A stretch of DNA of 64,000 nt from an uncultured Dehalococcoidia bacterium (GTDB lineage Bacteria; Chloroflexota; Dehalococcoidia; Lucifugimonadales; UBA3495). The DNA lies in NCBI GenBank assembly GCA_964347975.1, contig CAYGAY010000007.1:11066-75065 (forward strand), in the 5' to 3' direction. The notes under the pieces were generated by a model. That model did no database searches, was not told where the DNA came from, and was given only the letters and a program-made list of their open reading frames with translations. Every line of letters begins with the position of its first letter. The stretch's first letter is position 1. The position numbers and the translations under genes are program-made. Positions 5,008 through 29,815 of this stretch are shown here, piece by piece.

Positions 5008-6174
5008 TTACAGCAACGGCATCTGGAATGCTTGGTCTGCCGCCGTTGCGCCCTTGCCCAGGTGGGTGGCGGCGTAGCCCATGCGCCGCAAGTGGGCGGC
5101 GAGGTCGGGGAAGCCGAAAACGGTGTACACCCGTTGCGGCCGGACGGCCTGGACGTAAGCCACCAGGTCGTTGAAATCGGCGTGATCGCTGTAGGGCAGG
5201 CTGGCGTCCCCCGGGCGTCCCCGGCCCCAGGGCTTGACGCCGGCTCCGGCGGCCCAGCCGGTCAGTTCCAGGTAGCGCGCCGATTTGCCCGGCGGGCGAT
5301 GAGCGGCGATCTGCTCGCGAGACTTCCGGCCCGGCGGGAACAGCAGCGCTTCGCCATCATGGATGTCGCCGTCGAAGACCCGGTATTCGCCGTTGAAAGT
5401 TATCCCGCCCGCCTCGTATCTGCGGACGGTCTCGTAGATGCCCTCCTCGCAAACGACCCGAAACCCGCCGGCCAGCAGGTGATGCAGGGCCTCCTGCGCC
5501 TTGCCCAGCCGCCAGCCCAGGATCACGGGCAGCGCGCCCTGCTCCAGCCACTGGGCGGTGACCCGGAGGGCCGTCCCTATTGCCTCCTCCTGGGGCGGGA
5601 AAACGTAATCGGGCCGGCCGTAGGTGCTTTCGATCACCAGCACGTCGCAGGGCACTGGCTCCGCCGGTTCGTTGATGGGCGACGGCTGTGTCCGCAGGTC
5701 GCCGGTGTACAGCAGTCGTTCTCCCGTGCTGCGTCGGGTGACCAGAGTTTGCGCCGAACCCAGGCAGTGGCCCGCCGGATGCAGCGTGATCGTGTAGTCG
5801 GCCGTTTCCAGCGCCTCGCCGTATTCCAGTACCACCGGCTCGGAACGCTTCAGGTAATCGCCCAGAAGCCGGCGGGTGCCGTAGGTCAGCGCCGGGCGAC
5901 GGTGGCGGGCGGTATGGTCGGAGTGCGCGTGGGATATGACCGATACATCCTGCTTGCGCCGGGCGTCCAGCCACAGGTCAAGTTCGGGAAGATAAATGCC
6001 TCTGTCGAAAACCACTTCCACCGGAGCAACCCAGGCCGCCGGTCGCGACGTCAGCGAGTATAGCACGCTATTCTGACGCTTGCGGTATAATTCCTGCCAT
6101 CCGCGCCGGCCCGGTATCTGCCGCACCAGGACAGCCGTCCGGCGCAAAACAGGAGATGCTTGATGCCAGGTCAA
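5008..6174 (-). CDS. MBL-fold / beta-CASP-like hydrolase, resembles ligase-associated DNA-damage-response exonuclease
   Basis: Motifs ISHAHSDHTARH, HPAGHCLGSAQ and VIESTYG. The annotated ATG at 6174 overlaps the divergent peroxiredoxin start at 6163, so the true start is probably internal (for example GTG at 6066). Confidence 0.6.
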   Translation of the reverse strand: MTWHQASPVLRRTAVLVRQIPGRRGWQELYRKRQNSVLYSLTSRPAAWVAPVEVVFDRGIYLPELDLWLDARRKQDVSVISHAHSDHTARHRRPALTYGTRRLLGDYLKRSEPVVLEYGEALETADYTITLHPAGHCLGSAQTLVTRRSTGERLLYTGDLRTQPSPINEPAEPVPCDVLVIESTYGRPDYVFPPQEEAIGTALRVTAQWLEQGALPVILGWRLGKAQEALHHLLAGGFRVVCEEGIYETVRRYEAGGITFNGEYRVFDGDIHDGEALLFPPGRKSREQIAAHRPPGKSARYLELTGWAAGAGVKPWGRGRPGDASLPYSDHADFNDLVAYVQAVRPQRVYTVFGFPDLAAHLRRMGYAATHLGKGATAADQAFQMPLL

Positions 6175-6627
6175 ATTGGCGACGTTGCGCCGGATTTCAC
6201 TCTTCCGTCACCCCATGACGGCGACATCACCCTCAGCAACTATCGCGGCAGCAATTCCGTCGTGCTGTCGTTCCACGTGCTCGACTTCACCAGTGGTTGA
6301 ACGGACCAGGCGACCTCGTTCCGCCGTTTCAACGAGCGGTTCCAGGAGCTAAATGCCCAGGTGCTGGGCATCAGTTGCGACCACGTTGCCGCCCACCGGG
6401 CCTGGACCACCACCATGGGCGGCCTGCCCTATCCGGAGCTGTCCGACTGGCATCCCAAGGGGCAGGTGACCACCGCCTACGATCTTTGGAACGAAGAGCG
6501 TGGCGCCGGAACCCGCGCCGTTATCATTGTGGACAAGGATGGCGTCATCCGGTACCGTGAGACGTACCAGCCGGGCACGCTTCCCGACCCGGAAACCATT
6601 TTGCAAGCGGTGGCTGATCTGGGCTAG
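6163..6627 (+). CDS. BCP/PrxQ-type peroxiredoxin with in-frame TGA (candidate selenocysteine) at codon 46
   Basis: AGGAG at 6151-6155 precedes ATG 6163. One frame reads MPGQIGDVAPDFTLPS...VVLSFHVLDFTSG-TGA(6298-6300)-TDQATSFRRFNERFQELNAQVLGISCDH... and continues into track ORF 6361-6627. Total length is 154 codons, the normal BCP size. The TGA sits where T-x-x-C has its peroxidatic Cys. Confidence 0.7.
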
Positions 6628-6693: not shown

Positions 6694-7566
6694 CTATCCG
6701 CCGATTCCCTCAATGCGATACTGAACCGCCCCCCGGGGCGTGTTGATGGTGACTTCTTCGCCAGGGCTGCGGCCCATCAAGGCTTCTCCAATGGGGGAAA
6801 CCGTGGATATTTTGCCGGCCGACACGTCGGCCTCGCGCACGTCCACCAACGTAAAGACCCGCTCCTGTTGGGCAGTCAAATCGTGCAGGGTAACTCTTGA
6901 CCCAATGATCACCCGCTCCGTGTTGGCGTTGGAAGCATCGACGATCTCGACGTTGGCTAAATCGTTTTCCAACTGTCTGATGCGGCGTTCGGTCAACTGT
7001 TGCTGTTCGCGGGCGGCGTCCAGAGGAGCGTTTTCGCGCACGTCGCCGTCGCTGCGGGCCAGCCGGATGGCTTCCCGTATTTGAGGAACTTCACCCCGCA
7101 GGCGTTGCAGTTCAGCCTGTAGCTCGGTATGCCGTTGCTGGCTGAGGCGGGCGCTGGGGGTGCCGGTGGAGGCGCCGTTATGGTCGGCGTTCTGGAAGCG
7201 GCGGCGGTTGCGACGCGGCGCGGCGGCGTAACGAGCCAGGCTGTTCTCCGTCCAGCCGCGACGGTTGGCGAAGGTTAGAAACTTCTTGATGGGATCCAAA
7301 CGGGAGGACGGATCTTCCACGTTTTCCGTGGTCCACTTGGCGTATTCGCCGACTTCAATAGCGTGGAGCGTCGATATGAGCTTGTCCCGGCCGATTCTGG
7401 CCTGGAAACGCAACAGCTCCTGCTGGCCCTGCAATGCCTGTTTGCTCTCTTTGAGGTGATCCACGAACGCATTAATTGCCTGTGAAATCGAGAGGGGCTG
7501 ATCGTTGGTCAACTGTCCATCCTCCAGTTTAATCGCAGACTCAGGCTGCAAGGTGGCGATTATCAT
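6694..7566 (-). CDS. GreA/GreB-family transcription elongation factor with a ~140-aa N-terminal extension of unknown function
   Basis: The C-terminal ~150 aa carries GDVRENAPLDAAREQQQLTERRIRQLENDL (coiled coil) and ISTVSPIGEALMGRSPGEEVTINTPRG (GreA C-terminal domain). I do not recognise the N-terminal 140 aa. Confidence 0.75.
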   Translation of the reverse strand: MIIATLQPESAIKLEDGQLTNDQPLSISQAINAFVDHLKESKQALQGQQELLRFQARIGRDKLISTLHAIEVGEYAKWTTENVEDPSSRLDPIKKFLTFANRRGWTENSLARYAAAPRRNRRRFQNADHNGASTGTPSARLSQQRHTELQAELQRLRGEVPQIREAIRLARSDGDVRENAPLDAAREQQQLTERRIRQLENDLANVEIVDASNANTERVIIGSRVTLHDLTAQQERVFTLVDVREADVSAGKISTVSPIGEALMGRSPGEEVTINTPRGAVQYRIEGIGG

Positions 7567-9116: not shown

Positions 9117-9560
9117 ATGACGGGTTTGGACTCAGAAACCAACTGGCCGGCCCCCCGGGGCATCATCCTTTCCGACCTGGATTGGGTCGCCGATACCGCC
9201 CGGCGTTTTCAATTGGACGGGTTGGAGATACCCGGCGGGTCGGTGGTGCTGGAACGGATCTCCGCCACCGGAGGGCGCTGTTTCTGTTACCCTGACGGGT
9301 CGTGGCTGATTGGCCTGTCCCTGCCCCGGCTCCAGCGGAGCGGTCGGCGGGGGATGGAGGGCATACTGGCCCACGAACTGCTCCACGCGTGGCTGTGGTC
9401 GCTGCATCGGTACCAGGGACACGGGCCGGTTTTCGAGGGTCACGCTTCGGTTCGCGGCATTCCCCGGTGGTGTTCAGCATACGACGAGGTGCGCCGTCAG
9501 GGGCCGCAGCAGTTGGCGCTGTTCGACGCCGGCTCACGAAATCCGGCGTCATACCCATGA
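9117..9560 (+). CDS. SprT-like zinc-metallopeptidase domain protein
   Basis: HExxH motif in GILAHELLHAWLW, followed by HGPVF. Size is 147 aa. Confidence 0.45.
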   Translation: MTGLDSETNWPAPRGIILSDLDWVADTARRFQLDGLEIPGGSVVLERISATGGRCFCYPDGSWLIGLSLPRLQRSGRRGMEGILAHELLHAWLWSLHRYQGHGPVFEGHASVRGIPRWCSAYDEVRRQGPQQLALFDAGSRNPASYP

Positions 9561-9695
9561 TACGAAACTGCCATCCCGGTTTTCGGACCTTGTCGGTGTA
9601 ATTGAAGACGGTCAAGTTTATCAGGCAACTTCCATGAAGCCAAAGCGCGCAGCATTGCAGATTTTTTGAGTTTTTTCGCAAAAAACGCCTCAAAT

Positions 9696-9724
9696 TTGAC
9701 ATTAAGCCCAGGTCGGGCTAAACT
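9696..9724 (+). promoter_or_regulatory. near-consensus sigma-70-type promoter upstream of the panD leader
   Basis: TTGACA (9696-9701), a 17-nt spacer, then TAAACT (9719-9724). It lies in an AT-rich patch after a gttttttcgcaaaaaac palindrome. Confidence 0.6.
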
Positions 9725-9784
9725 GCCGCACAGTCAAACGCAGGTCTGCACAAACATCAACCTGCCCTTAAGCAAGGAGGCCAT

Positions 9785-9955
9785 ATGAGTGCAGCCGCGC
9801 TGATAGCGCAACAACAATTGTCGGAATCTGACTCTACGCGGCCCCGCCCGTTGCGGGACTGGCCGAGCGTCAATTTTGTTTCTGGATGCCTTCGCTCCTT
9901 CGGGGTGTACCCCGTCCGGGGTCGTGCGAGGCACCAGCTGCCCTGCGAGCCTTAG
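9785..9955 (+). CDS. possible small ORF (56 aa) in the panD leader
   Basis: AAGGAGG at 9774-9780 sits 4 nt before ATG 9785. Translation MSAAALIAQQQLSESDSTRPRPLRDWPSVNFVSGCLRSFGVYPVRGRARHQLPCEP, stop TAG at 9953-9955. It is below the ORF-track cutoff and has no recognisable domain. Confidence 0.25.
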   Translation: MSAAALIAQQQLSESDSTRPRPLRDWPSVNFVSGCLRSFGVYPVRGRARHQLPCEP

Positions 9956-10169
9956 CTGCTCCCAGCTTAAACCGGGCGGCGGAAGTAGCGTTCCGCCATA
10001 CGCCCTTCCCTTCGGGTTTCTGCCGCAACGCCGATTGCGGGAGCCTGCCGCGCCCCGGTGTCTAACCGCAGCGTGAGGCCCCCTTGGCCGCGACGGCTGG
10101 CCGGGCCGAGCCCCGGCCCAAATCCACATCCCGCCAATCATCATTGGCCCCAACCAACGAGGAGCGAAT

Positions 10170-10559
10170 ATGCGAGAAGTCTTGAAGTCAAAAATTCACC
10201 GCTGCTGGGTGTCCAGCGCCAACCTGGGCTATGTGGGCAGCATCATCATTGACCGTGACCTGATGGACCAGACGGACATCGTCACCTACGAAAAAGTCCA
10301 GGTGCTGAACGTCACCAACGGCCAGCGGTGGGAGACCTACGCTCTTCCCGGCGAGCGCGGCGGTGGAACCATTGCCGTTCAGGGCGCGGCGGCCCGGCTG
10401 TGCCAGGAGGGCGACTGCCTCATCATCCTCGCCTTCGACATCACCAACGAGCCGGCCGACCCGAAGATGGTCCTGGTTGACGAAAACAACAAGTTCCTGG
10501 AATGGATTGAAGGGTCGATGTATGCCGAACCACAGCCCGAGCCCGTCGCGCTTTTCTGA
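10170..10559 (+). CDS. panD: aspartate 1-decarboxylase (pyruvoyl-dependent)
   Basis: KSKIHRCWVSSANLGYVGSIIIDRDLM aligns with E. coli PanD [22 protein letters not shown], including the Gly-Ser self-cleavage site. NVTNGQRWETYA also matches. GAGGAG RBS is present. Confidence 0.9.
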   Translation: MREVLKSKIHRCWVSSANLGYVGSIIIDRDLMDQTDIVTYEKVQVLNVTNGQRWETYALPGERGGGTIAVQGAAARLCQEGDCLIILAFDITNEPADPKMVLVDENNKFLEWIEGSMYAEPQPEPVALF

Positions 10560-11382
10560 GCGAGAGACGGAACAATACTATGACGCCGAGGATGCCCTCT
10601 ACCGTTCCTTCTGGGATGCGGAGGGCAGTCTCCACTGGGGCATCTTTGAAGCCCCGGAACAGCCGGGAAGCGACGCCAATGTGCGCAGCGAATTCCTCGC
10701 CGCTTGCTCCCGGCTGAATGAGGTCATGCTGGAGAACGCGGGCATCAATGAGAACGCCCGCGTCCTCGACCTGGGGTGTGGCAACGGCAACACCACCACC
10801 TGGCTATGCCGGACCACGGGCGCGCGGGTCACCGGCATTGACCTCAGCGGCGTGCGCATCGCCAACGCCATCGCGGCTTTGGGGCAGACCCCCAACCTGG
10901 CGCCCCCCCTGGAGTTTCACAAGGCGTCGGCCACCGACCTCCCCTTCGAGGACGGAACCTTCTCCCACGTGTGGAGCCAGGCCACCATCTACCACATCCC
11001 GGACAAGGCCAAAACCCTGCAGGAAGCCTACCGGGTGCTGGAGCCGGGCGGCGTCATGGTCTTCGACGACCTGACCAAGCCCAAGCCCGACATCAGCGAC
11101 GAAGCCCGCGCCTTCGTGTACGACCGGCTGCTGTTCGACACCGATTACAGCTTCTACTCGTACATGGACGCGCTGCGTGAGACCGGGTTCAAGGTGCTGG
11201 AAGCCCGCGACCTGTCGTCGCACCTGGCGCGCAGCTACACCTGCCTGTCCCGCATGGCGGCCGCGGGAACCGACCCCGACCGCCGGGAACGCTTCGCCGC
11301 CCTGTCCGACGCCTATCTGAAAATGGTCAACGCCGTACACAACGAAGAACTGGGCTGGGCGCAGTACTTGTGCGTCAAATAG
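10522..11382 (+). CDS. SAM-dependent N-methyltransferase, sarcosine/dimethylglycine N-methyltransferase (SDMT)-like, paralog 1
   Basis: ATG 10522 overlaps the panD 3' end by 38 nt. Motifs: ETEQYYDAEDALYRSFWDAEGSLHWGIF, VLDLGCGNG, HVWSQATIYHIPDK, RVLEPGGVMVFDD, and C-terminus ELGWAQYLCVK. They parallel the SDMT motifs I recall from halophile enzymes (YY.SEDADNFY..WGGEDIHIGLY, VWSQDSFLHSPD, GYLTWGIFYFRK). Confidence 0.75.
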   Translation: MPNHSPSPSRFSERETEQYYDAEDALYRSFWDAEGSLHWGIFEAPEQPGSDANVRSEFLAACSRLNEVMLENAGINENARVLDLGCGNGNTTTWLCRTTGARVTGIDLSGVRIANAIAALGQTPNLAPPLEFHKASATDLPFEDGTFSHVWSQATIYHIPDKAKTLQEAYRVLEPGGVMVFDDLTKPKPDISDEARAFVYDRLLFDTDYSFYSYMDALRETGFKVLEARDLSSHLARSYTCLSRMAAAGTDPDRRERFAALSDAYLKMVNAVHNEELGWAQYLCVK

Positions 11383-11420
11383 GACCCCCAACTCAAAACT
11401 GCCCAAGGAGCTGAACAAAT

Positions 11421-12269
11421 ATGGTAATCGGGCACCGGTTCTCCGAGCAGGAAACCGAAAATTACTATGACGCGGAAGATGTGATCTACCGCTCGGTGTG
11501 GGACGCCGAAGGAACCGTGCACTGGGGCGTATTCGACCGGGAGCCCGCCGGGGATAGCGCCATCCGCGAGGAGTTTAGAGCCGCCGGTATCCGCCTCAAT
11601 GAGTTGATGGTGGAGTGCGCGGGCATCGGCTCGGGTTCCCGCGTGCTGGACGTGGGGTGCGGCAATGGCACCAATGTAATCTGGGTCGCCCGGAACACCG
11701 GCGCCCGGGCAACCGGCATTGACCTCAGCGGCGTCCGCATCGCCAACGCTGTCGCCTCCCTAGAGGAGCAGCCGGAACTTGCCGGCAAGATCGCCTTTGA
11801 GAAGGCTTCGGCCACCGACCTGCCTTTCGAGGAAGGCGCGTTCACCCACGTTTGGAGCCAGGCTACCATCTATCACGTGCCGGACAAGGTAAAGGTTCTC
11901 GAGGAAGCGTACCGTGTCCTGGAACCGGGCGGGCAGTTCATCTTCGACGACCTGATCAAGCCCACGCCCGACATCAGCGAATCGGCGCGCCAGTTCGTGT
12001 ACGACCGCCTGCTGTTCGACACCGATTTCAGCTTCTATTCCTACATGGACGCCCTGCGCGAGATCGGCTTCAAGGTGTTGCAGGCCCGCGACCTGTCATA
12101 CCACCTGGCCCGCAGCTACACCTACCTCTCCAACCTGGCCGCCATCGCCGAAGGCCCCGAAGGTTATCAGGAACGTTTCGACTACCTGGCCGATGCCTAC
12201 ATGAAGACCGTGGACGCCATCAACAACGACGAGCTGGGCTGGGCGCAGTACCTCTGCGTCAAGCGGTAG
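11421..12269 (+). CDS. SAM-dependent N-methyltransferase, SDMT-like, paralog 2
   Basis: Roughly two-thirds identical by eye to the preceding gene along its full length (ETENYYDAEDVIYRSVWDAEGTVHWGVF ... ELGWAQYLCVKR). AAGGAG RBS is present. Confidence 0.75.
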   Translation: MVIGHRFSEQETENYYDAEDVIYRSVWDAEGTVHWGVFDREPAGDSAIREEFRAAGIRLNELMVECAGIGSGSRVLDVGCGNGTNVIWVARNTGARATGIDLSGVRIANAVASLEEQPELAGKIAFEKASATDLPFEEGAFTHVWSQATIYHVPDKVKVLEEAYRVLEPGGQFIFDDLIKPTPDISESARQFVYDRLLFDTDFSFYSYMDALREIGFKVLQARDLSYHLARSYTYLSNLAAIAEGPEGYQERFDYLADAYMKTVDAINNDELGWAQYLCVKR

Positions 12270-12273
12270 ATTA

Positions 12274-12313
12274 CCCCCTCTCCCTTGATAGGAGAGGGCT
12301 GGGACGAGGGTGA
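12274..12313. repeat. short hairpin repeat (CCCTCTCC...GGAGAGGG...GAGGGTGA type)
   Basis: ccctctcc-cttgata-ggagaggg followed by ctgggacgagggtga. This is a widespread intergenic repeat type and lies between methyltransferases 2 and 3. Confidence 0.5.
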
Positions 12314-12341
12314 ATTACCCGCATAACGGAGCAGAACAACA

Positions 12342-12986
12342 ATGCCTGAAACAGGAAATATCAGTTCGGAAGACCGGGTTCAGTGGGTTTATTCATCCAC
12401 CACCAACGACGAGTTGGCCGAGCGGTACGACCAGTGGGCGAAGGAATACGACGACGACCTGGAGAACACCTTCGTCTGGCTGGCCCCGCGTATGGGAGCC
12501 GAAACGCTGGCCGAGCACGTAGCCAGGGATGCCCGGATCCTCGACGCCGGCGCCGGCACCGGCCTGGTGGGCGTGGAGTTGGAGCGCCTGGGTTACGGCG
12601 ACATCTGCGCCATGGACCTGTCCGACGGTATGTTGGAAGAAGCCCGCGCCAAGGGTTGCTACAACGACTTCCGCCGGATGGCCCTGGGTGATCACCTGGA
12701 CTTCGACACCGACGCCTACGACGCTGTAATCAGCATCGGCGTGTTCACCCCGGGCCACGCGCCGCCCGACTCCTTCGTGGAACTGTGCCGCGTCACCAGG
12801 CCCGGCGGCCACATCGTGTTCAGCATGCGCCCCGACACCCACGTCGAACTGGGTTTCAAGGACCAGCAGGACGCTCTGGTGGACAGCGGCGCCTGGTCCC
12901 TGGTGACGGTGACTGAGCCATTCCAGCCCCTGCCCAAGGGCGAGCCGGAGGTGATGCACCAGATCTGGGTGTATCGGGTGAACTGA
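12342..12986 (+). CDS. class I SAM-dependent methyltransferase (METTL27/WBSCR27-like)
   Basis: YDQWAKEYDDDL N-terminal motif, motif I ILDAGAGTGLVG, and DAVISIGVF. Size is 214 aa. It is the third methyltransferase co-directional with panD. Confidence 0.7.
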   Translation: MPETGNISSEDRVQWVYSSTTNDELAERYDQWAKEYDDDLENTFVWLAPRMGAETLAEHVARDARILDAGAGTGLVGVELERLGYGDICAMDLSDGMLEEARAKGCYNDFRRMALGDHLDFDTDAYDAVISIGVFTPGHAPPDSFVELCRVTRPGGHIVFSMRPDTHVELGFKDQQDALVDSGAWSLVTVTEPFQPLPKGEPEVMHQIWVYRVN

Positions 12987-12995
12987 AATCCGCGA

Positions 12996-13406
12996 TCACT
13001 CGCGGGTTTCCATGGGCAGACCCTGGTCGTGGACTTCCAGGATGCACTCCGGGCAGCGGTGACCGGGATCGTGCCCGGTGGCCGGCCAGATGTCCTCCCC
13101 CTTGACGCCGCAGAGGAAGAAGGGTTCCACTTCCTCGATCCCCAGGCTTTCCAGGTAATGAACCACGCCCTGCTTGTGGGGATTGTCGTACCACCATGGG
13201 GTGAGGGAGCGCGCCAGAGCCCGGATGTTCTCCTTGAAATCGTCCGCGTACTCTTCCGGGTCGTCAGGAATGTCCACCATCCAGCGGGTTCCATTGGGGC
13301 CGCCTTCCCTGGCGGCCGGCAGCTTGCCGTCGCGGACGTTCTTGCGGATGACGTCCTGCGAAACGTTCAGGATCCGTGAAGCTTCCTGGATGGTAACCCG
13401 GGGCAT
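12996..13406 (-). CDS. helix-turn-helix (excisionase/MerR-like) domain protein
   Basis: MPRVTIQEASRILNVSQDVIRKNVRDGKLPA is a typical Xis-type HTH. GAGG lies 6 nt before ATG 13406. The C-terminal part has CPEC. Confidence 0.55.
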   Translation of the reverse strand: MPRVTIQEASRILNVSQDVIRKNVRDGKLPAAREGGPNGTRWMVDIPDDPEEYADDFKENIRALARSLTPWWYDNPHKQGVVHYLESLGIEEVEPFFLCGVKGEDIWPATGHDPGHRCPECILEVHDQGLPMETRE

Positions 13407-13489
13407 AGCGCACCTCAATCAGCGACGATAATCAATCGGTTGCCCTATTTCTACCACTAACCCGGCGGGGCGGCAAGTCAATCGCTTTG

Positions 13490-13721: not shown

Positions 13722-14462
13722 TCATTCCTCCGTGTCGTGGAGTTGCTCTTCCAGTTCGCGGACGCGAGCCTCGGCGGCGATGCGGGCTTGCCGCTCCAGG
13801 CTCAGCTCCGCCTCTGCCGCGGTAGCCCGCCTTTCTGCCGCTGCCCGCTTGTCGATGGTCAATCCGGTTTCCGGGTCCAGCGCGTCAAACTCTTGCCCAC
13901 CATCCCAATAAAACGACACCTCCAGCAACTCGCTGTACGACCGCGCCGAGCCGTCCGCGCCGTACTCCAGCGGATACTCCGCGTACTCTCCGTTCATCAG
14001 TCGCTCGCCCAGCATCGCTTGCCCGTACAGCGCGCCGCCCGTCGGGTCAAACCGCCAGTATTCCTGGATGCCCAACCGCTGGTACAACTCCCGCTTCCAA
14101 CCCAAATCATGCTCCGCTGTGCTCGGTGACGCCACTTCCAGCGCGAAGTCCGGCGCCTTGCCGATTTCCCAAATCCAGAAGTTCGGCAGGTTCGCGTAGA
14201 TGCCTGCTGCGTCAACGTCAAAGGCCATGAACAAGTCCGGCGCAACCCGACGATTGCCGTCGGTTACGTCGTAGGAGACGAATCCGCCACCGTTCACGAA
14301 CACGTCGGGGCAATCCTGATAACGCTCATAGAGCAGCCCGGATATTCGGAATACGGTGGGCCACTGCTCCATAGCGTCCTCAATTCGCTCCGGTTCTTCG
14401 TAGAAAATGTCCGGCAGGGTTCGTACCTTCCAGGCATTCGTGAGTATTCTGGTGGCGGCCAT
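13722..14462 (-). CDS. Uma2-family (DUF820) putative endonuclease with C-terminal coiled-coil tail
   Basis: PDLFMAFDVD...APDFALEVASPSTAEHDLGWKRELYQRLGIQEYWRFDP. The start was set to ATG 14462 (GGAGG upstream) because the longer ORF runs into the ilvB 3' end and a repeat. Confidence 0.75.
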   Translation of the reverse strand: MAATRILTNAWKVRTLPDIFYEEPERIEDAMEQWPTVFRISGLLYERYQDCPDVFVNGGGFVSYDVTDGNRRVAPDLFMAFDVDAAGIYANLPNFWIWEIGKAPDFALEVASPSTAEHDLGWKRELYQRLGIQEYWRFDPTGGALYGQAMLGERLMNGEYAEYPLEYGADGSARSYSELLEVSFYWDGGQEFDALDPETGLTIDKRAAAERRATAAEAELSLERQARIAAEARVRELEEQLHDTEE

Positions 14463-14565
14463 GGGAGTGCCTCCGGCGGCGGTATTCTCCGACGATTCTA
14501 CCCGATGTTCCTGCGCTTTGCATAAATAATCAGTTTTGGCAGCGATGCAATTCAGGCGGGTAGCG

Positions 14566-14619
14566 TTGCAATTTAGGTGGTTTAATTTCTCGTCATTCCG
14601 GCTTGCGCCGGAACGACGG
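14566..14619. repeat. partial copy of the composite family B element
   Basis: ttgcaatttaggtggtttaatttctcgtcattccggcttgcgccggaacgacgg matches the left part of 7614-7736. Confidence 0.7.
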
Positions 14620-14652
14620 TTATGGCGCGGCAACTGCGGCAGTTGGGCGGCG

Positions 14653-16362
14653 TTAGCGCGCAGCCGCCATGGTGCGCGGGTCTTCCAGCGTGTCGGCCAG
14701 GGAGCCGCCGGGGGGCACCATGGGGAACACGTTGGTCTCACGCTCCACCACGAACTCGATCAGGAACGGCCCATCGTATTCCCGGGCTTGACGCAGGGCG
14801 TCGGACACGTCTTCCTGGTGTTCCACCCGCAGCGCCGGGATGTCGTAGGCATTGGCCAGTTTCACGTAATCCGGGCCGGGCATCGGAACTTCTTTCAGGT
14901 GCCCCTCGAAGAACATCTCCTGCCACTGGCGCACCATGCCCAGGTAGCCGTTGTTGAAAATGGCGATCTTGATGGGCAGCTTCTCCTGCACTGCCGTCAC
15001 CAGTTCCTGCAGGGTCATCTGGAAGCCGCCGTCGCCGGCCACCGACCACACCGTGGCGTCGGGCCGTCCCACCTGGGCGCCCAGCGCGGCGGGGACTTCG
15101 AAGCCCATGGCCCCCAGGCCGCCGGAAGTTACGAAGGAATTGGGCTGGTCCAGGAACAGGTATTGCGCCGCCCACATCTGATGCTGTCCCACTCCCGTCA
15201 CCACGATGGCATTGTCGTCCTGCCGGAGCGCCTCGTTCATTTCCACCAGCACCTGTTGGGGCAGCAGCGCCCGGTTAGACGCGGGATCCGGGGCGGGTAT
15301 CGCCAAGGATGGATGCTGGGCCTTCAGGCTGGCGATGGTCGCCAGCCATGCGGGGCGTTCCACCCACTCGACCAGCGGCGTCAGAGCTTGCAGAACGGGG
15401 CGGGCGTCGCCCACCAGCGGCACCTCCGCGGGGACAATCCGCCCCACCTGGCTGGCCTCAATATCCAGGTGGATGATGCGCGCGTGGGGCGCAAACCCGG
15501 ACACGCGCCCGGTCACCCGGTCGTCGAAACGCATCCCCAGCCCGATGATGACGTCCGCCTGGTCAACTACCATATTGCACCAGTACATACCGTGCATCCC
15601 CAGCATCCCCAGGCTTTGCGGGTGGTTGCGGGGAAAGCCGCTGATGCCCAACAGGGTGTTTATCACCGGAATGCCGGAATGTTCCGCCAGGGCCAGCAGC
15701 TCATCGAAGGCGCGGGAGTTGACGATGCCGTGCCCGGCGATGATGACCGGCCGCTCCGACTGGTTCATCAGCGCCGCCGCCTTGTGGATATTTTCCATCA
15801 ACTCGTCGGACAGCGCCGGATCAGTGGCTCCAGCCGGCGTCGGGTAATCAAACTCGGCTTCCTCCAGCTGAACATCCCGGGGCACATCAATGAGGACAGG
15901 ACCGGGCCGGCCTTCCTGGGCAACTCGGAACGCCTCCCGGACGGTGCGCGCCAGGTCGTTGGCCGACATCACCAAGAAGGTGCGCTTGGTGCATACCGAA
16001 GCGATGCTGCAGATGTCGCATTCCTGGAATGCTTCGGTGCCCATGGCGGCGCGGGCCACCTGCCCGGTGATGGCCACCAGGGGGATGCTGTCGGCCTTGG
16101 CGCCCATGATGCCGGTGATGAGGTTGGTCGCGCCGGGTCCCGAGGTGGCCACGCAGACGCCGGGCTTGCCGGTGATGCGGGCGTAGCCGTCGGCGGCGTG
16201 GGCCGCGGACTGCTCGTGCCTTACCAGGATATGGCGCAGCTGCGGGTAGGCCCACAGGGCATCGTAAAAGGGCAGTATCGCCCCGCCGGGATGTCCGAAC
16301 AGTACCTCTACTCCTTCCCGGAGCAAGCTTTCGCAAATTATTTCAGAGCCTTTGAGTTTCAC
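14653..16362 (-). CDS. ilvB: acetolactate synthase large subunit (second paralog in the window)
   Basis: 569 aa. N-terminus GSEIICESLLREGVEVLFGHPGGAILPFYDAL, ThDP motif GLGAMGFEVPAALGA...GDGGFQM. GTG start with GGAG 8 nt upstream. Confidence 0.9.
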   Translation of the reverse strand: MKLKGSEIICESLLREGVEVLFGHPGGAILPFYDALWAYPQLRHILVRHEQSAAHAADGYARITGKPGVCVATSGPGATNLITGIMGAKADSIPLVAITGQVARAAMGTEAFQECDICSIASVCTKRTFLVMSANDLARTVREAFRVAQEGRPGPVLIDVPRDVQLEEAEFDYPTPAGATDPALSDELMENIHKAAALMNQSERPVIIAGHGIVNSRAFDELLALAEHSGIPVINTLLGISGFPRNHPQSLGMLGMHGMYWCNMVVDQADVIIGLGMRFDDRVTGRVSGFAPHARIIHLDIEASQVGRIVPAEVPLVGDARPVLQALTPLVEWVERPAWLATIASLKAQHPSLAIPAPDPASNRALLPQQVLVEMNEALRQDDNAIVVTGVGQHQMWAAQYLFLDQPNSFVTSGGLGAMGFEVPAALGAQVGRPDATVWSVAGDGGFQMTLQELVTAVQEKLPIKIAIFNNGYLGMVRQWQEMFFEGHLKEVPMPGPDYVKLANAYDIPALRVEHQEDVSDALRQAREYDGPFLIEFVVERETNVFPMVPPGGSLADTLEDPRTMAAAR

Positions 16363-17089: not shown

Positions 17090-17179
17090 GGAGAGGTGCC
17101 AGAGTGGACGAATGGGCGCGACTGGAAATCGCGTAGGGGTTAACGCCTCTCGCGGGTTCGAATCCCGCCCTCTCCGCCA
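17090..17179 (+). tRNA. tRNA-Ser (anticodon GGA), CCA encoded
   Basis: GGAGAGG acceptor stem pairs with CCTCTCC. Anticodon loop is cuGGAaa. The long variable arm gtaggggttaacgcctctc marks a class II tRNA. T-arm is GGGTTCGAATCCC, followed by discriminator G and CCA. Confidence 0.9.
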
Positions 17180-28996: not shown

Positions 28997-29053
28997 CAGA
29001 ACGGCAACGGTCGGGGATTACGCCGGCCATTGTAGCTGTCGGGCCGGGACGGG

Positions 29054-29767
29054 TCAAACGGCGGGGTCGATGCCATGCTGCCGCAGACGCGCCTCCAGCT
29101 CCCGGACGCGGGACTCGGCGGTATCCGCGCGCTCCCGTTCCTCGTCCAGATTCAGAAGCCATACCCCAGCCACCGGGTCGTAAAACCGCAGCCGGCCGTT
29201 GTCCCAGCACAGGTCCAGCCCCAGAGCGGGGCTGTGCGTCCATATCATACCGTCGGGTTCCTCGTTTATGGAGAACTCACGGTACTCTCCGTTCACCAGC
29301 TGCTCCCCCACCAGGGGACGTTGGTAGAACTGGCCGCCGGTAGCATCGTAACACCAGTATTCACCGACGCCAATCACGGCGTACAGCGCGCGCTTGTCGG
29401 TTTCGTCATAATGTCCAGTGCTCTCCGAAGCGATTTCCAGCACGAAGTCCGGCGGTTTACCCACCCGCCAGATGATGTAGGAGTTCTCCTCCAGCATGGC
29501 CTCCACGTCCACGCCAAAAGCGACGTAGCAGTCGGGGGACACGAAACGGCGGGGATTATTCATTTCGTAGTAGATGAATGTGTTGCCGTTGACCGCGACG
29601 TGGGGCTGCGTTTTCAGGCGCGCTTCCAGAGTGGAAACAACCTCACGGTACAGGGGGGCTTGATGTTCACCATCTGGCAAGGGCAGACCGTCCGTTTCGG
29701 GATAGAAAATCGTCGGGTCCTCGTCGGGGTGGCGAACCGGCGCCAGGGGTTTCAGTTTGGCAACCAT
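29054..29767 (-). CDS. Uma2-family (DUF820) putative endonuclease with C-terminal coiled-coil tail (paralog of 13722-14462)
   Basis: FVSPDCYVAFGVD...PPDFVLEIASESTGHYDETDKRALYAVIGVGEYWCYD, then the tail ERERADTAESRVRELEARLRQ. Confidence 0.75.
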   Translation of the reverse strand: MVAKLKPLAPVRHPDEDPTIFYPETDGLPLPDGEHQAPLYREVVSTLEARLKTQPHVAVNGNTFIYYEMNNPRRFVSPDCYVAFGVDVEAMLEENSYIIWRVGKPPDFVLEIASESTGHYDETDKRALYAVIGVGEYWCYDATGGQFYQRPLVGEQLVNGEYREFSINEEPDGMIWTHSPALGLDLCWDNGRLRFYDPVAGVWLLNLDEERERADTAESRVRELEARLRQHGIDPAV

Positions 29768-29815
29768 TTTCAGAGGCTCCGTTGTATAGTCGAAAGGGCG
29801 GGGCGAGTATAATTG

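Follow-up and report, generated by a model that had tools for sequence, protein, structure and literature searches.

A conserved panD-methyltransferase operon of Dehalococcoidia and its candidate role in beta-alanine betaine synthesis

The 64,000-nt stretch of DNA analyzed here (the window), from an uncultured Dehalococcoidia bacterium, contains an operon (about 9696-13005, + strand; coordinates without a locus name are those of the whole stretch) in which panD, coding for a pyruvoyl-dependent aspartate 1-decarboxylase, is followed by three genes coding for class I S-adenosylmethionine (SAM)-dependent methyltransferases. The operon probably makes an N-methylated beta-alanine, the likeliest being beta-alanine betaine, a compatible solute. 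A route from aspartate through beta-alanine and N-methyl-beta-alanines to beta-alanine betaine had been proposed from the letters of the DNA (the sequence-only reading), and comparative genomics supports it through the adjacency of the genes in other genomes, the fusion of methyltransferase genes, and partner enzymes of a type that acts on trimethylammonium compounds.

The genes are organized as the sequence-only reading described, with three co-directional methyltransferase genes after panD and no GNMT-like gene in the cluster. The panD gene (10170-10559, +) codes for 129 aa and overlaps MT1 (10522-11382, +), which codes for a 286-aa methyltransferase of the type referred to here as MT_A. The reported start of MT1 38 nt inside the 3′ end of panD is confirmed by its ATG at 10522 and the panD stop codon ending at 10559, and the MT1 ribosome-binding site (RBS), GAAGGG, is 8 nt upstream of the ATG, within the C-terminal codons of panD. 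MT2 (11421-12269, +; 282 aa) is a tandem paralog of MT1, and the two proteins, described as about two-thirds identical, are 68% identical when measured. MT3 (12342-12986, +; 214 aa) is METTL27-like, as had been noted, its best solved homolog being human METTL27 (7qcb; 91.6 bits, E = 5.7e-25, residues 28-194). From family and fold, MT1 is a class I methyltransferase with a proposed role in beta-alanine N-methylation, and MT3 is proposed to be the pathway's second N-methyltransferase.

In the proposed pathway, PanD would decarboxylate L-aspartate to beta-alanine, the activity expected of its assigned family, and the amino group would then be methylated three times with SAM. Gene context suggests that MT1/MT2 and MT3 share these steps, as do the glycine/sarcosine and sarcosine/dimethylglycine N-methyltransferases (GSMT and SDMT), and, more speculatively, the duplication giving MT1 and MT2 in this lineage may split the steps further. 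Translation of MT1 would be coupled to that of panD through the 38-nt overlap, with ribosomes recruited at the site within the panD C-terminal codons.

Linkage of panD and the methyltransferases across lineages

A scan of one genome per species with an alignment of MT1 and MT2 as the query (at least 50% identity) yields 11 loci, and panD adjoins the MT_A gene as its direct upstream neighbor in 10 of these, with MT3 present too in 8. The hosts are Dehalococcoidia metagenome-assembled genomes (MAGs), a Hyphomicrobiaceae MAG (L009), and Candidatus Paraprochloron terpiosi (L010), a cyanobacterial symbiont of the sponge Terpios hoshinota (PMC9298193). Protein look-ups give the same gene set at all 16 places sampled: for PanD clusters P0159 and P0211, 7 of 7 places have panD, a 272-aa MT_A (20-nt overlap), and a 210-aa MT3, and for MT_A homologs P0116 and P0040, 9 of 9 places combine panD with one or two copies of MT_A and with MT3. 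The host of P0159 is a Dehalococcoidia MAG, and the source tag of a sister protein cluster points to Tara Oceans. Marine-plankton assemblies are among the Dehalococcoidia with this gene set. The adjacency of panD and methyltransferase genes, whose presence in relatives the sequence-only reading had left to be checked, is therefore conserved. The translational signals are conserved as well, with a G[G/A]AGGG RBS in the panD C-terminal codons (Leu/Ile-Glu-Gly) at a matching position in all three loci compared (the window, L082, and L086) and a C-terminal [YFW][LI]EG motif kept in most PanD clusters.

The core gene set persists in changed arrangements. L009 has MT3 on the opposite strand, and L010 has the order MT_A-MT3-panD. 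A GT20 trehalose-6-phosphate-synthase-like (otsA-like) gene lies directly after MT_A in L009, which fits a compatible-solute setting. The MT1-MT2 tandem is seen directly in L171-L175, and there are at least 13 values of longest contig that are shared by a pair of MT1-type and MT2-type matches. In L002, the closest genome, MT1 is present only as an 81-aa remnant (L002:5750-5992), and in L006 (5658-9160) a unit of leader open reading frame (ORF), panD, and MT_A is present in two tandem copies followed by a single MT3; MT_A copy number is therefore evolving quickly. Beyond the operon, 12 loci share only lineage-specific synteny (ilvB, a small helix-turn-helix [HTH] gene, and a quinone oxidoreductase gene), and no conserved transporter or regulator was found in them. 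Because the flanking genes vary between lineages, selection acts on panD, MT_A, and MT3 themselves.

This pattern bears on the idea that there is no shared pathway, with panD serving pantothenate and coenzyme A synthesis beside unrelated methyltransferase genes, to which we give very little probability. PanD falls normally within the coenzyme A pathway family, the window has no second panD, and the flanking genes (ilvC, leuA, greA, ilvB, fabI, and F420 cofactor genes) are housekeeping ones, all of which this idea would accommodate. It does not readily account for a coding overlap and embedded RBS that are conserved across distant lineages, for linkage held in four phyla despite differing flanks, for the duplication of leader ORF, panD, and MT_A as one unit in L006, or for the lack of an adjacent panB or panC in all loci examined.

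ATP-grasp genes are a further feature of some loci. A D-Ala-D-Ala-ligase-like gene adjoins the module in L009 (2211-3218, -) and L161 (18-803), the two being 70% identical, and in L003 a fragment with ATP-grasp similarity (6882-7073) follows MT_A. Such an enzyme could ligate a beta-alanine derivative to another molecule.

In L010, MT_A and MT3 form a single 468-aa ORF, and a search with this fusion protein identifies more than 100 protein clusters (∼465 aa) with 98 to 100% query coverage and 44 to 85% identity. The hosts include the cyanobacteria Symploca, Moorea, Okeania, Hormoscilla, Spirulina, Tolypothrix, Scytonema, and Aetokthonos, as well as Thalassomonas viridans, Mycobacterium marinum, M. 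simiae, and Streptomyces albireticuli. The fusion gene travels with panD and with additional enzymes. The Ca. Paraprochloron terpiosi locus (L010:5998-11477) codes for the fusion, PanD, an asnB-like amidotransferase (4-nt overlap), a cupin, and a gamma-butyrobetaine-hydroxylase-like (GBBH-like) Fe/2-oxoglutarate (Fe/2OG) dioxygenase; that of T. viridans (L180:3356-9895) codes for a nonribosomal peptide synthetase-like A-T-C protein, a GBBH-like protein, the fusion, and PanD; and that of a Moorea sp. (L183:8001-14216) codes for the fusion, a cupin, PanD, and two GBBH-like proteins. In M. marinum (L181, 2126-7228, and L182), the genes for the fusion, PanD, a GBBH-like protein, and a carnitine-acyltransferase family protein (PF00755) are joined by coding overlaps of 1 to 4 nt, and a major facilitator superfamily transporter gene is on the other strand. 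The genome paper of Paraprochloron makes no mention of the gene cluster (PMC9298193).

These partners bear on the likely product. For the L010 dioxygenase, the solved relatives are limited to human gamma-butyrobetaine dioxygenase (129 bits), DfmD, and TmpA, a 2-trimethylaminoethylphosphonate hydroxylase. BBOX1, TmpA, and the carnitine and choline acyltransferases are all known to recognize a trimethylammonium group, and beta-alanine betaine is gamma-butyrobetaine minus one CH2. Partners of GBBH-like, TmpA-like, and carnitine-acyltransferase-family type, present with the module in four other lineages, are therefore independent, if indirect, chemical evidence that panD, MT_A, and MT3 together would yield a trimethylammonium carboxylate. 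In the fused-module lineages, further hydroxylation and acylation of the betaine are presumed, and an undescribed C3 betaine pathway resembling that of carnitine is suggested for cyanobacteria, T. viridans, and M. marinum. Homologs of carnitine pathway enzymes (BBOX1 and carnitine acyltransferases) are thus part of the operons of L010, Thalassomonas, Moorea, and M. marinum, and unlike the carnitine pathway itself, the likely substrate would be a C3 rather than a C4 betaine, giving a hypothetical 2-hydroxy-3-trimethylammoniopropanoate (“nor-carnitine”) and its esters. With no GBBH-like or acyltransferase genes, the window operon would end its pathway at the betaine.

The same observations help in judging whether the pathway might stop at N-methyl- or N,N-dimethyl-beta-alanine, or whether MT_A might perform all three methylations while MT3 acts elsewhere, either of which we regard as unlikely. 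A single methyltransferase can suffice, as the plant beta-alanine enzyme is trifunctional. Successive methylations by one SAM-dependent methyltransferase are also described in the marine betaine literature (PMC9321204), the tight, translationally coupled pair consists of panD and MT_A, and MT3 homologs of similar identity often occur without either. However, MT3 stays with panD and MT_A in L009 despite being on the opposite strand and in L010 despite the changed order, more than 100 protein clusters have it in one polypeptide with MT_A, and the characterized relatives of the GBBH-like, TmpA-like, and carnitine-acyltransferase partners act on fully trimethylated amines. Complete methylation to beta-alanine betaine therefore remains the preferred reading.

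Enzyme families and known betaine routes

The description of panD as present, canonical, with a Gly-Ser self-cleavage site, and not beside panB or panC is borne out by a family model, alignments, and Pfam calls. PanD scores above the cutoff of the curated NCBIfam equivalog TIGR00223 (120.4 bits versus 106) and of Pfam Asp_decarbox PF02261 (134.9 bits versus 25). Alignments to the PanDs of M. tuberculosis, E. coli, and Thermus thermophilus (YVG-S, KSKIHR, and NGQRWETY) place the cleavage site at YVG-S (Gly24-Ser25) and show conservation of the equivalents of E. coli K9, H11, Y22, R54, T57, and Y58. Precomputed Pfam calls of the source contig (ENA ERZ21848999 NODE_46), which span window positions 1421-64000, include no Pantoate_transf (panB), Pantoate_ligase (panC), or second Asp_decarbox. 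Among the 120 closest PanD protein clusters (58 to 95% identity, mostly 122 to 129 aa), the cleavage site and the NGxRxxTY motif are kept in every one.

One active-site position differs. Residue 71 of the window PanD is Gln (IAVQGAAA) where E. coli has Asn72, and Gln is at this position in 116 of the 120 closest clusters, whereas the solved PanDs have Asn. Asn72 of the E. coli zymogen forms a hydrogen bond with Ser25, yet from the N72A variant it is reported to be dispensable for activation (PMC3975893), so Gln is not treated here as disqualifying for PanD membership. The substitution raises the question of whether this PanD clade uses another acidic amino acid, such as cysteate or cysteine sulfinate, leading to a different onium compound such as taurine betaine, which occurs in marine invertebrates. 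We consider this highly improbable: PanD passes the equivalog cutoff; Lys9, Thr57, Tyr58, and Arg54, which we take to bind the aspartate side-chain carboxylate, are conserved; and the PanDs linked to the fused methyltransferase, which have longer C termini, keep Asn72 and adjoin enzymes whose known relatives use carboxylate betaines.

MT1 and MT2 are members of the SDMT/MitM/RebM/PEAMT fold subfamily, including its N-terminal helical cap, as judged from an AlphaFold model (pLDDT 84). Foldseek matches the model to the Galdieria SDMT structure 2o57 with E = 6e-21, a TM-score of 0.77 to 0.83, and 24% identity, and about equal fold matches are found to AtmM and RebM (sugar O-methyltransferases), MitM, TleD and GPPMT (C-methyltransferases), SpnF, and PEAMT. 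By sequence, the aziridine N-methyltransferase MitM (102 bits) is the closest solved match, ahead of 2o57 (70 bits). The SDMT motif set that the sequence-only reading had recognized is hence accurate as to the fold subfamily that is shared, and the narrower assignment does not hold, as the motifs are not specific to SDMT, the SDMT cutoff is not reached, and MitM is closer. Since the top sequence and fold matches mix N-, O-, and C-methyltransferases, neither acceptor atom nor substrate is readable from homology, and the substrate of MT_A is proposed from gene context. The top NCBIfam match of MT1, the DVU_1556 family, has no bearing on this assignment, as the Desulfovibrio paper concerns a different, pyridoxal phosphate-dependent aspartate decarboxylase and does not include DVU1556.

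MT3 shares the N-terminal YDxWAxxYDxD motif of METTL27 (WBSCR27), and because the substrate of METTL27 is not established, no function is transferable from it. A metagenome scan with an alignment of MT3 gives 80 loci (49 to 63% identity); most are without panD and MT_A. Among those with enough upstream DNA to judge, roughly one-quarter have the operon, and roughly 20 or more are without the two genes. Operon-linked MT3s mostly group together in a neighbor-joining tree. A large sister group of MT3-like proteins (50 to 60% identity; among L089-L168, for example, L101, L103, L112, L120, L122, and L127) has neither panD nor MT_A nearby, and no conserved neighbor of these panD-less paralogs was found among the MT3-scan loci.

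Several known systems offer comparisons. Glycine betaine is made by GSMT and SDMT in Aphanothece halophytica and Halorhodospira halochloris, and Actinopolyspora halophila has a fused GSMT-SDMT. The pathway proposed here is similar in its stepwise SAM-dependent N-methylation of an amino acid to a betaine by two different class I enzymes, in the fusion of the two methyltransferase types in some lineages, and in the fold subfamily that MT1 and MT2 share with SDMT. It differs in its proposed substrate, beta-alanine supplied by a dedicated, translationally coupled PanD; in the distance of MT1 and MT2 from SDMT (only about 24% identity and below the curated cutoff); and in having a METTL27-like rather than a GNMT-like partner. 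Phosphoethanolamine N-methyltransferases (Plasmodium PMT and plant PEAMT), which build a trimethylammonium group by three N-methylations in succession, are in the same fold subfamily as MT1 and MT2, and the invariant WSQATIYH of MT_A seems, by eye, to correspond to the motif with the catalytic His of PfPMT. Unlike MT1 and MT2, these enzymes use a phosphate ester, and they are ∼20% identical and have no decarboxylase link.

In plants, one trifunctional enzyme carries out the N-methylation of beta-alanine; it belongs to the COMT-like O-methyltransferases of plants, presumably Pfam Methyltransf_2, and the beta-alanine of Limonium is thought to derive from polyamine or other routes rather than from PanD. 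Pfam matches of MT1 to MT3 at E ≤ 0.001 are to Methyltransf_11, _12, _23, _24, _25, _31, and _9, Ubie_methyltran, CMAS, MetW, and TPMT, with the plant O-methyltransferase family absent. As only generic class I models are matched, the similarity to the plant route is read as convergent. The likeness lies in the threefold SAM-dependent methylation of beta-alanine, known for the Limonium latifolium enzyme (PMC6657504, PMC9321204) and proposed here. No bacterial genes for beta-alanine betaine synthesis were found in the full-text literature searched, whose coverage excludes most subscription journals, and only the Limonium enzyme is cited there (PMC6657504), in agreement with the earlier suspicion that a bacterial pathway is undescribed. 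Methyl-group 13C of glycine betaine turns up in beta-alanine betaine when North Pacific communities are incubated with it, a study that could cite only the plant pathway (PMC9321204), and the compound is present in radiolarian holobionts and their symbionts (PMC11965087).

A number of points weigh against synthesis of beta-alanine betaine by the operon. The support is genomic, and enzyme activity and metabolite are predicted from it. The check for pantothenate-pathway copies of panD, panB, and panC covered the 64-kb window, which has none. The change of Asn72 to Gln leaves a small chance of a different PanD substrate. MT1 and MT2 score 96.5 and 95.8 bits against the SDMT model NF041675, which has a cutoff of 550, and are not members of that family; their solved relatives (23 to 30% identity) include N-, O-, and C-methyltransferases and a cyclase. 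The MT3 family is broader than the pathway, with both panD and MT_A present in only 13 of the 80 MT3-scan loci. There are also two panD-less variants, one with leader ORF, MT_A, and MT3 (L118, 2467-4292) and one with MT_A alone (L003, 6001-6810). No osmolyte transporter or osmotic regulator linked to the operon is present in the window, and a metabolite-sensing leader, as considered below, would be unusual for an osmolyte synthesis operon.

The leader ORF upstream of panD

The operon begins with a putative sigma-70-like promoter (9696-9724, +; TTGACA-17 nt-TAAACT), identified as a consensus match in a scan (10 of 12 positions), both hexamers of which are invariant in an alignment of the window, L002, and L001; similar TTGACA boxes are seen by eye 5′ of the leader ORF in most other loci. 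The leader ORF (9785-9955, +) codes for 56 aa (MSAAALIAQQQ...RGRARHQLPCEP-stop), is preceded by an AAGGAGG RBS, and is called as a gene on the source contig. It is separated from panD by a 214-nt spacer (9956-10169, +) that is modestly C-rich and may be rut-like.

Within the 600 nt upstream of panD, the alignment of the window, L002, and L001 has blocks of conservation as strong as in the coding region. The last 16 nt of the leader ORF, CCCTGCGAGCCTTAGC (9941-9956), occur once in the window, and 14 of 170 loci each have a single copy of the consensus block CC[C/T]TG[C/T]GAGCCTTAGC, without exception 5′ of the methyltransferase genes and on the same strand as panD. The 16-mer reads Pro-Cys-Glu-Pro-stop, and its variable bases are synonymous third positions in this frame and nonsynonymous in the others. 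An ORF of 32 to 56 codons ending in [R/K]-x-[R/K]-[H/Y]-x-[L/V]-P-C-E-P-stop is present in 26 of 31 upstream regions as well as in L171-L179, with PCEH, PCDP, PCKP, PCVP, PCGT, LCGH, and PFGP as variant endings. The carriers are the window, L001, L002, L005-L008, L082-L088, L092, L104-L118, L121, L138, and L171-L179. In these peptides the C-terminal ∼10 aa are conserved, and the N-terminal parts are unrelated between clades. A riboswitch in the 570 nt upstream of panD was considered and rejected, as there is no Rfam 15 match in this leader region (the window at gathering score; 9400-10300 at E ≤ 5) and the nucleotide conservation is explained by the coding leader ORF.

By analogy, the leader ORF codes for a candidate termination-stalling arrest peptide, which would act as an attenuator of the TnaC/SpeFL type. 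SpeFL precedes a decarboxylase operon (speF-potE). In the tnaC system, the peptide, while still nascent, prevents release at Pro-stop, and the ribosome stalled there masks a site at which Rho would load (PMC8429421, PMC8450073). Here, the end of the leader peptide would stall the ribosome at termination, and a C-rich site for Rho loading would then lie under it, in the manner of tnaC and speFL. Several features are shared: like both, the leader is a short ORF upstream in the same transcript with only its C-terminal residues conserved, and it is followed by a spacer, with the leader stop 146 to 318 nt upstream of the next gene in the loci carrying it, that is usually C-rich and G-poor (34 to 41 C versus 14 to 20 G in the first 100 nt past the stop in most loci); like TnaC, it has Pro as the last sense codon; and like SpeFL, it precedes an amino acid decarboxylase operon. 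No intrinsic terminator was found on the + strand of the leader region. Unlike TnaC and SpeFL, there is no sequence resemblance past the terminal Pro, and stalling and Rho dependence are predictions from the DNA.

Some observations fit an attenuator poorly. The C excess is modest in the window spacer (39% C versus 29% G) and lacking in L002, L005, L007, and L121, and L082-L085 have no ATG, GTG, or TTG start in the Pro-Cys-Glu-Pro frame. The leader ORF is mainly found in Dehalococcoidia, is absent or unclear in L004, L009, L011, and L161, and is absent from the fused-type clusters. Full-text literature searches found no link between panD and a leader peptide.

The conserved upstream element could instead be a small functional protein, for instance one that matures or regulates PanD, or a binding site for protein or RNA whose readability as an ORF is coincidental, and we see these as improbable. 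Some PanDs do need an accessory protein (PanZ/PanM) for activation, and the missing start codons of L082-L085 also speak for such an alternative. But only the last ∼10 residues are conserved while length and N terminus vary freely, a poor fit to a folded protein, and the synonymous pattern of substitutions in the 16-mer favors translation over a pure DNA or RNA site; there is also no Rfam match. The candidate arrest peptide is therefore the preferred explanation of the leader ORF.

Flanking features and implications

The operon probably ends at a GC-rich hairpin (12990-13005; CCGCGA-TCAC-TCGCGG) in the convergent junction between MT3 and a small HTH gene; it is a weak consensus match, reported on the - strand by a terminator-like scan and, on the + strand, starting 4 nt past the MT3 stop. 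A second hairpin, CCCTCTCC-CTTGATA-GGAGAGGG, lies in the spacer between MT2 and MT3 (12270-12341). It has a perfect 8-bp stem, is not accompanied by a T-run, and might affect mRNA processing or stability inside the operon. The small HTH gene (12996-13418, -), with a weak HTH_17 match, is convergent with MT3 and shares its hairpin. Its position is kept in L002, L005, L008, and L171-L177, and it could be a regulator or mere lineage synteny.

Elsewhere in the window, a peroxiredoxin (AhpC-TSA) gene (6163-6627, +) has an in-frame TGA (6298-6300) at the expected peroxidatic Cys (LDFTSG-TGA-TDQ) and is split in two by gene callers, both in the window and in L171-L175. It is more probably a selenocysteine peroxiredoxin gene than a pseudogene. 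Two Uma2-family endonuclease genes (13722-14741, -, and about 29000-29800) and a tRNA gene (17090-17176) are apparently unrelated to the operon.

To our knowledge, the only known enzyme of beta-alanine betaine biosynthesis is that of a salt-marsh plant. The compound is regularly detected in the metabolomes of marine particles and in corals, radiolarians, and other holobionts (PMC9321204, PMC11965087), and the producers of this nitrogen-containing osmolyte could be traced with a marker gene from a conserved bacterial gene set. Compared with known amino acid betaine synthesis, the operon would use nonorthologous enzymes and a dedicated precursor-supplying decarboxylase, and its leader-peptide control is probably new. 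A broader and decidedly tentative proposal, which taken as a whole we hold to be possible rather than probable, is that the module is the missing bacterial route to beta-alanine betaine and its main microbial source in the ocean and in sponges, by way of Dehalococcoidia, including marine-plankton SAR202-like lineages, and of sponge symbionts; that the Dehalococcoidia switch is a new metabolite- or ion-sensing Pro-Cys-Glu-Pro-stop arrest peptide; and that the fused modules feed GBBH-like hydroxylases and, in M. marinum, a carnitine-acyltransferase-like enzyme, giving an undescribed C3 carnitine analog and its acyl esters.

If the proposed pathway is correct, a function would be assigned to a widespread Dehalococcoidia operon, and the METTL27-like family would gain its first biochemical lead, in the N-methylation of small amines. 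The Pro-Cys-Glu-Pro-stop leader would, if its candidate role is correct, be a new arrest peptide and a rare case outside Proteobacteria and Firmicutes, and the fused-gene versions point to unexplored carnitine-like compounds, M. marinum included.

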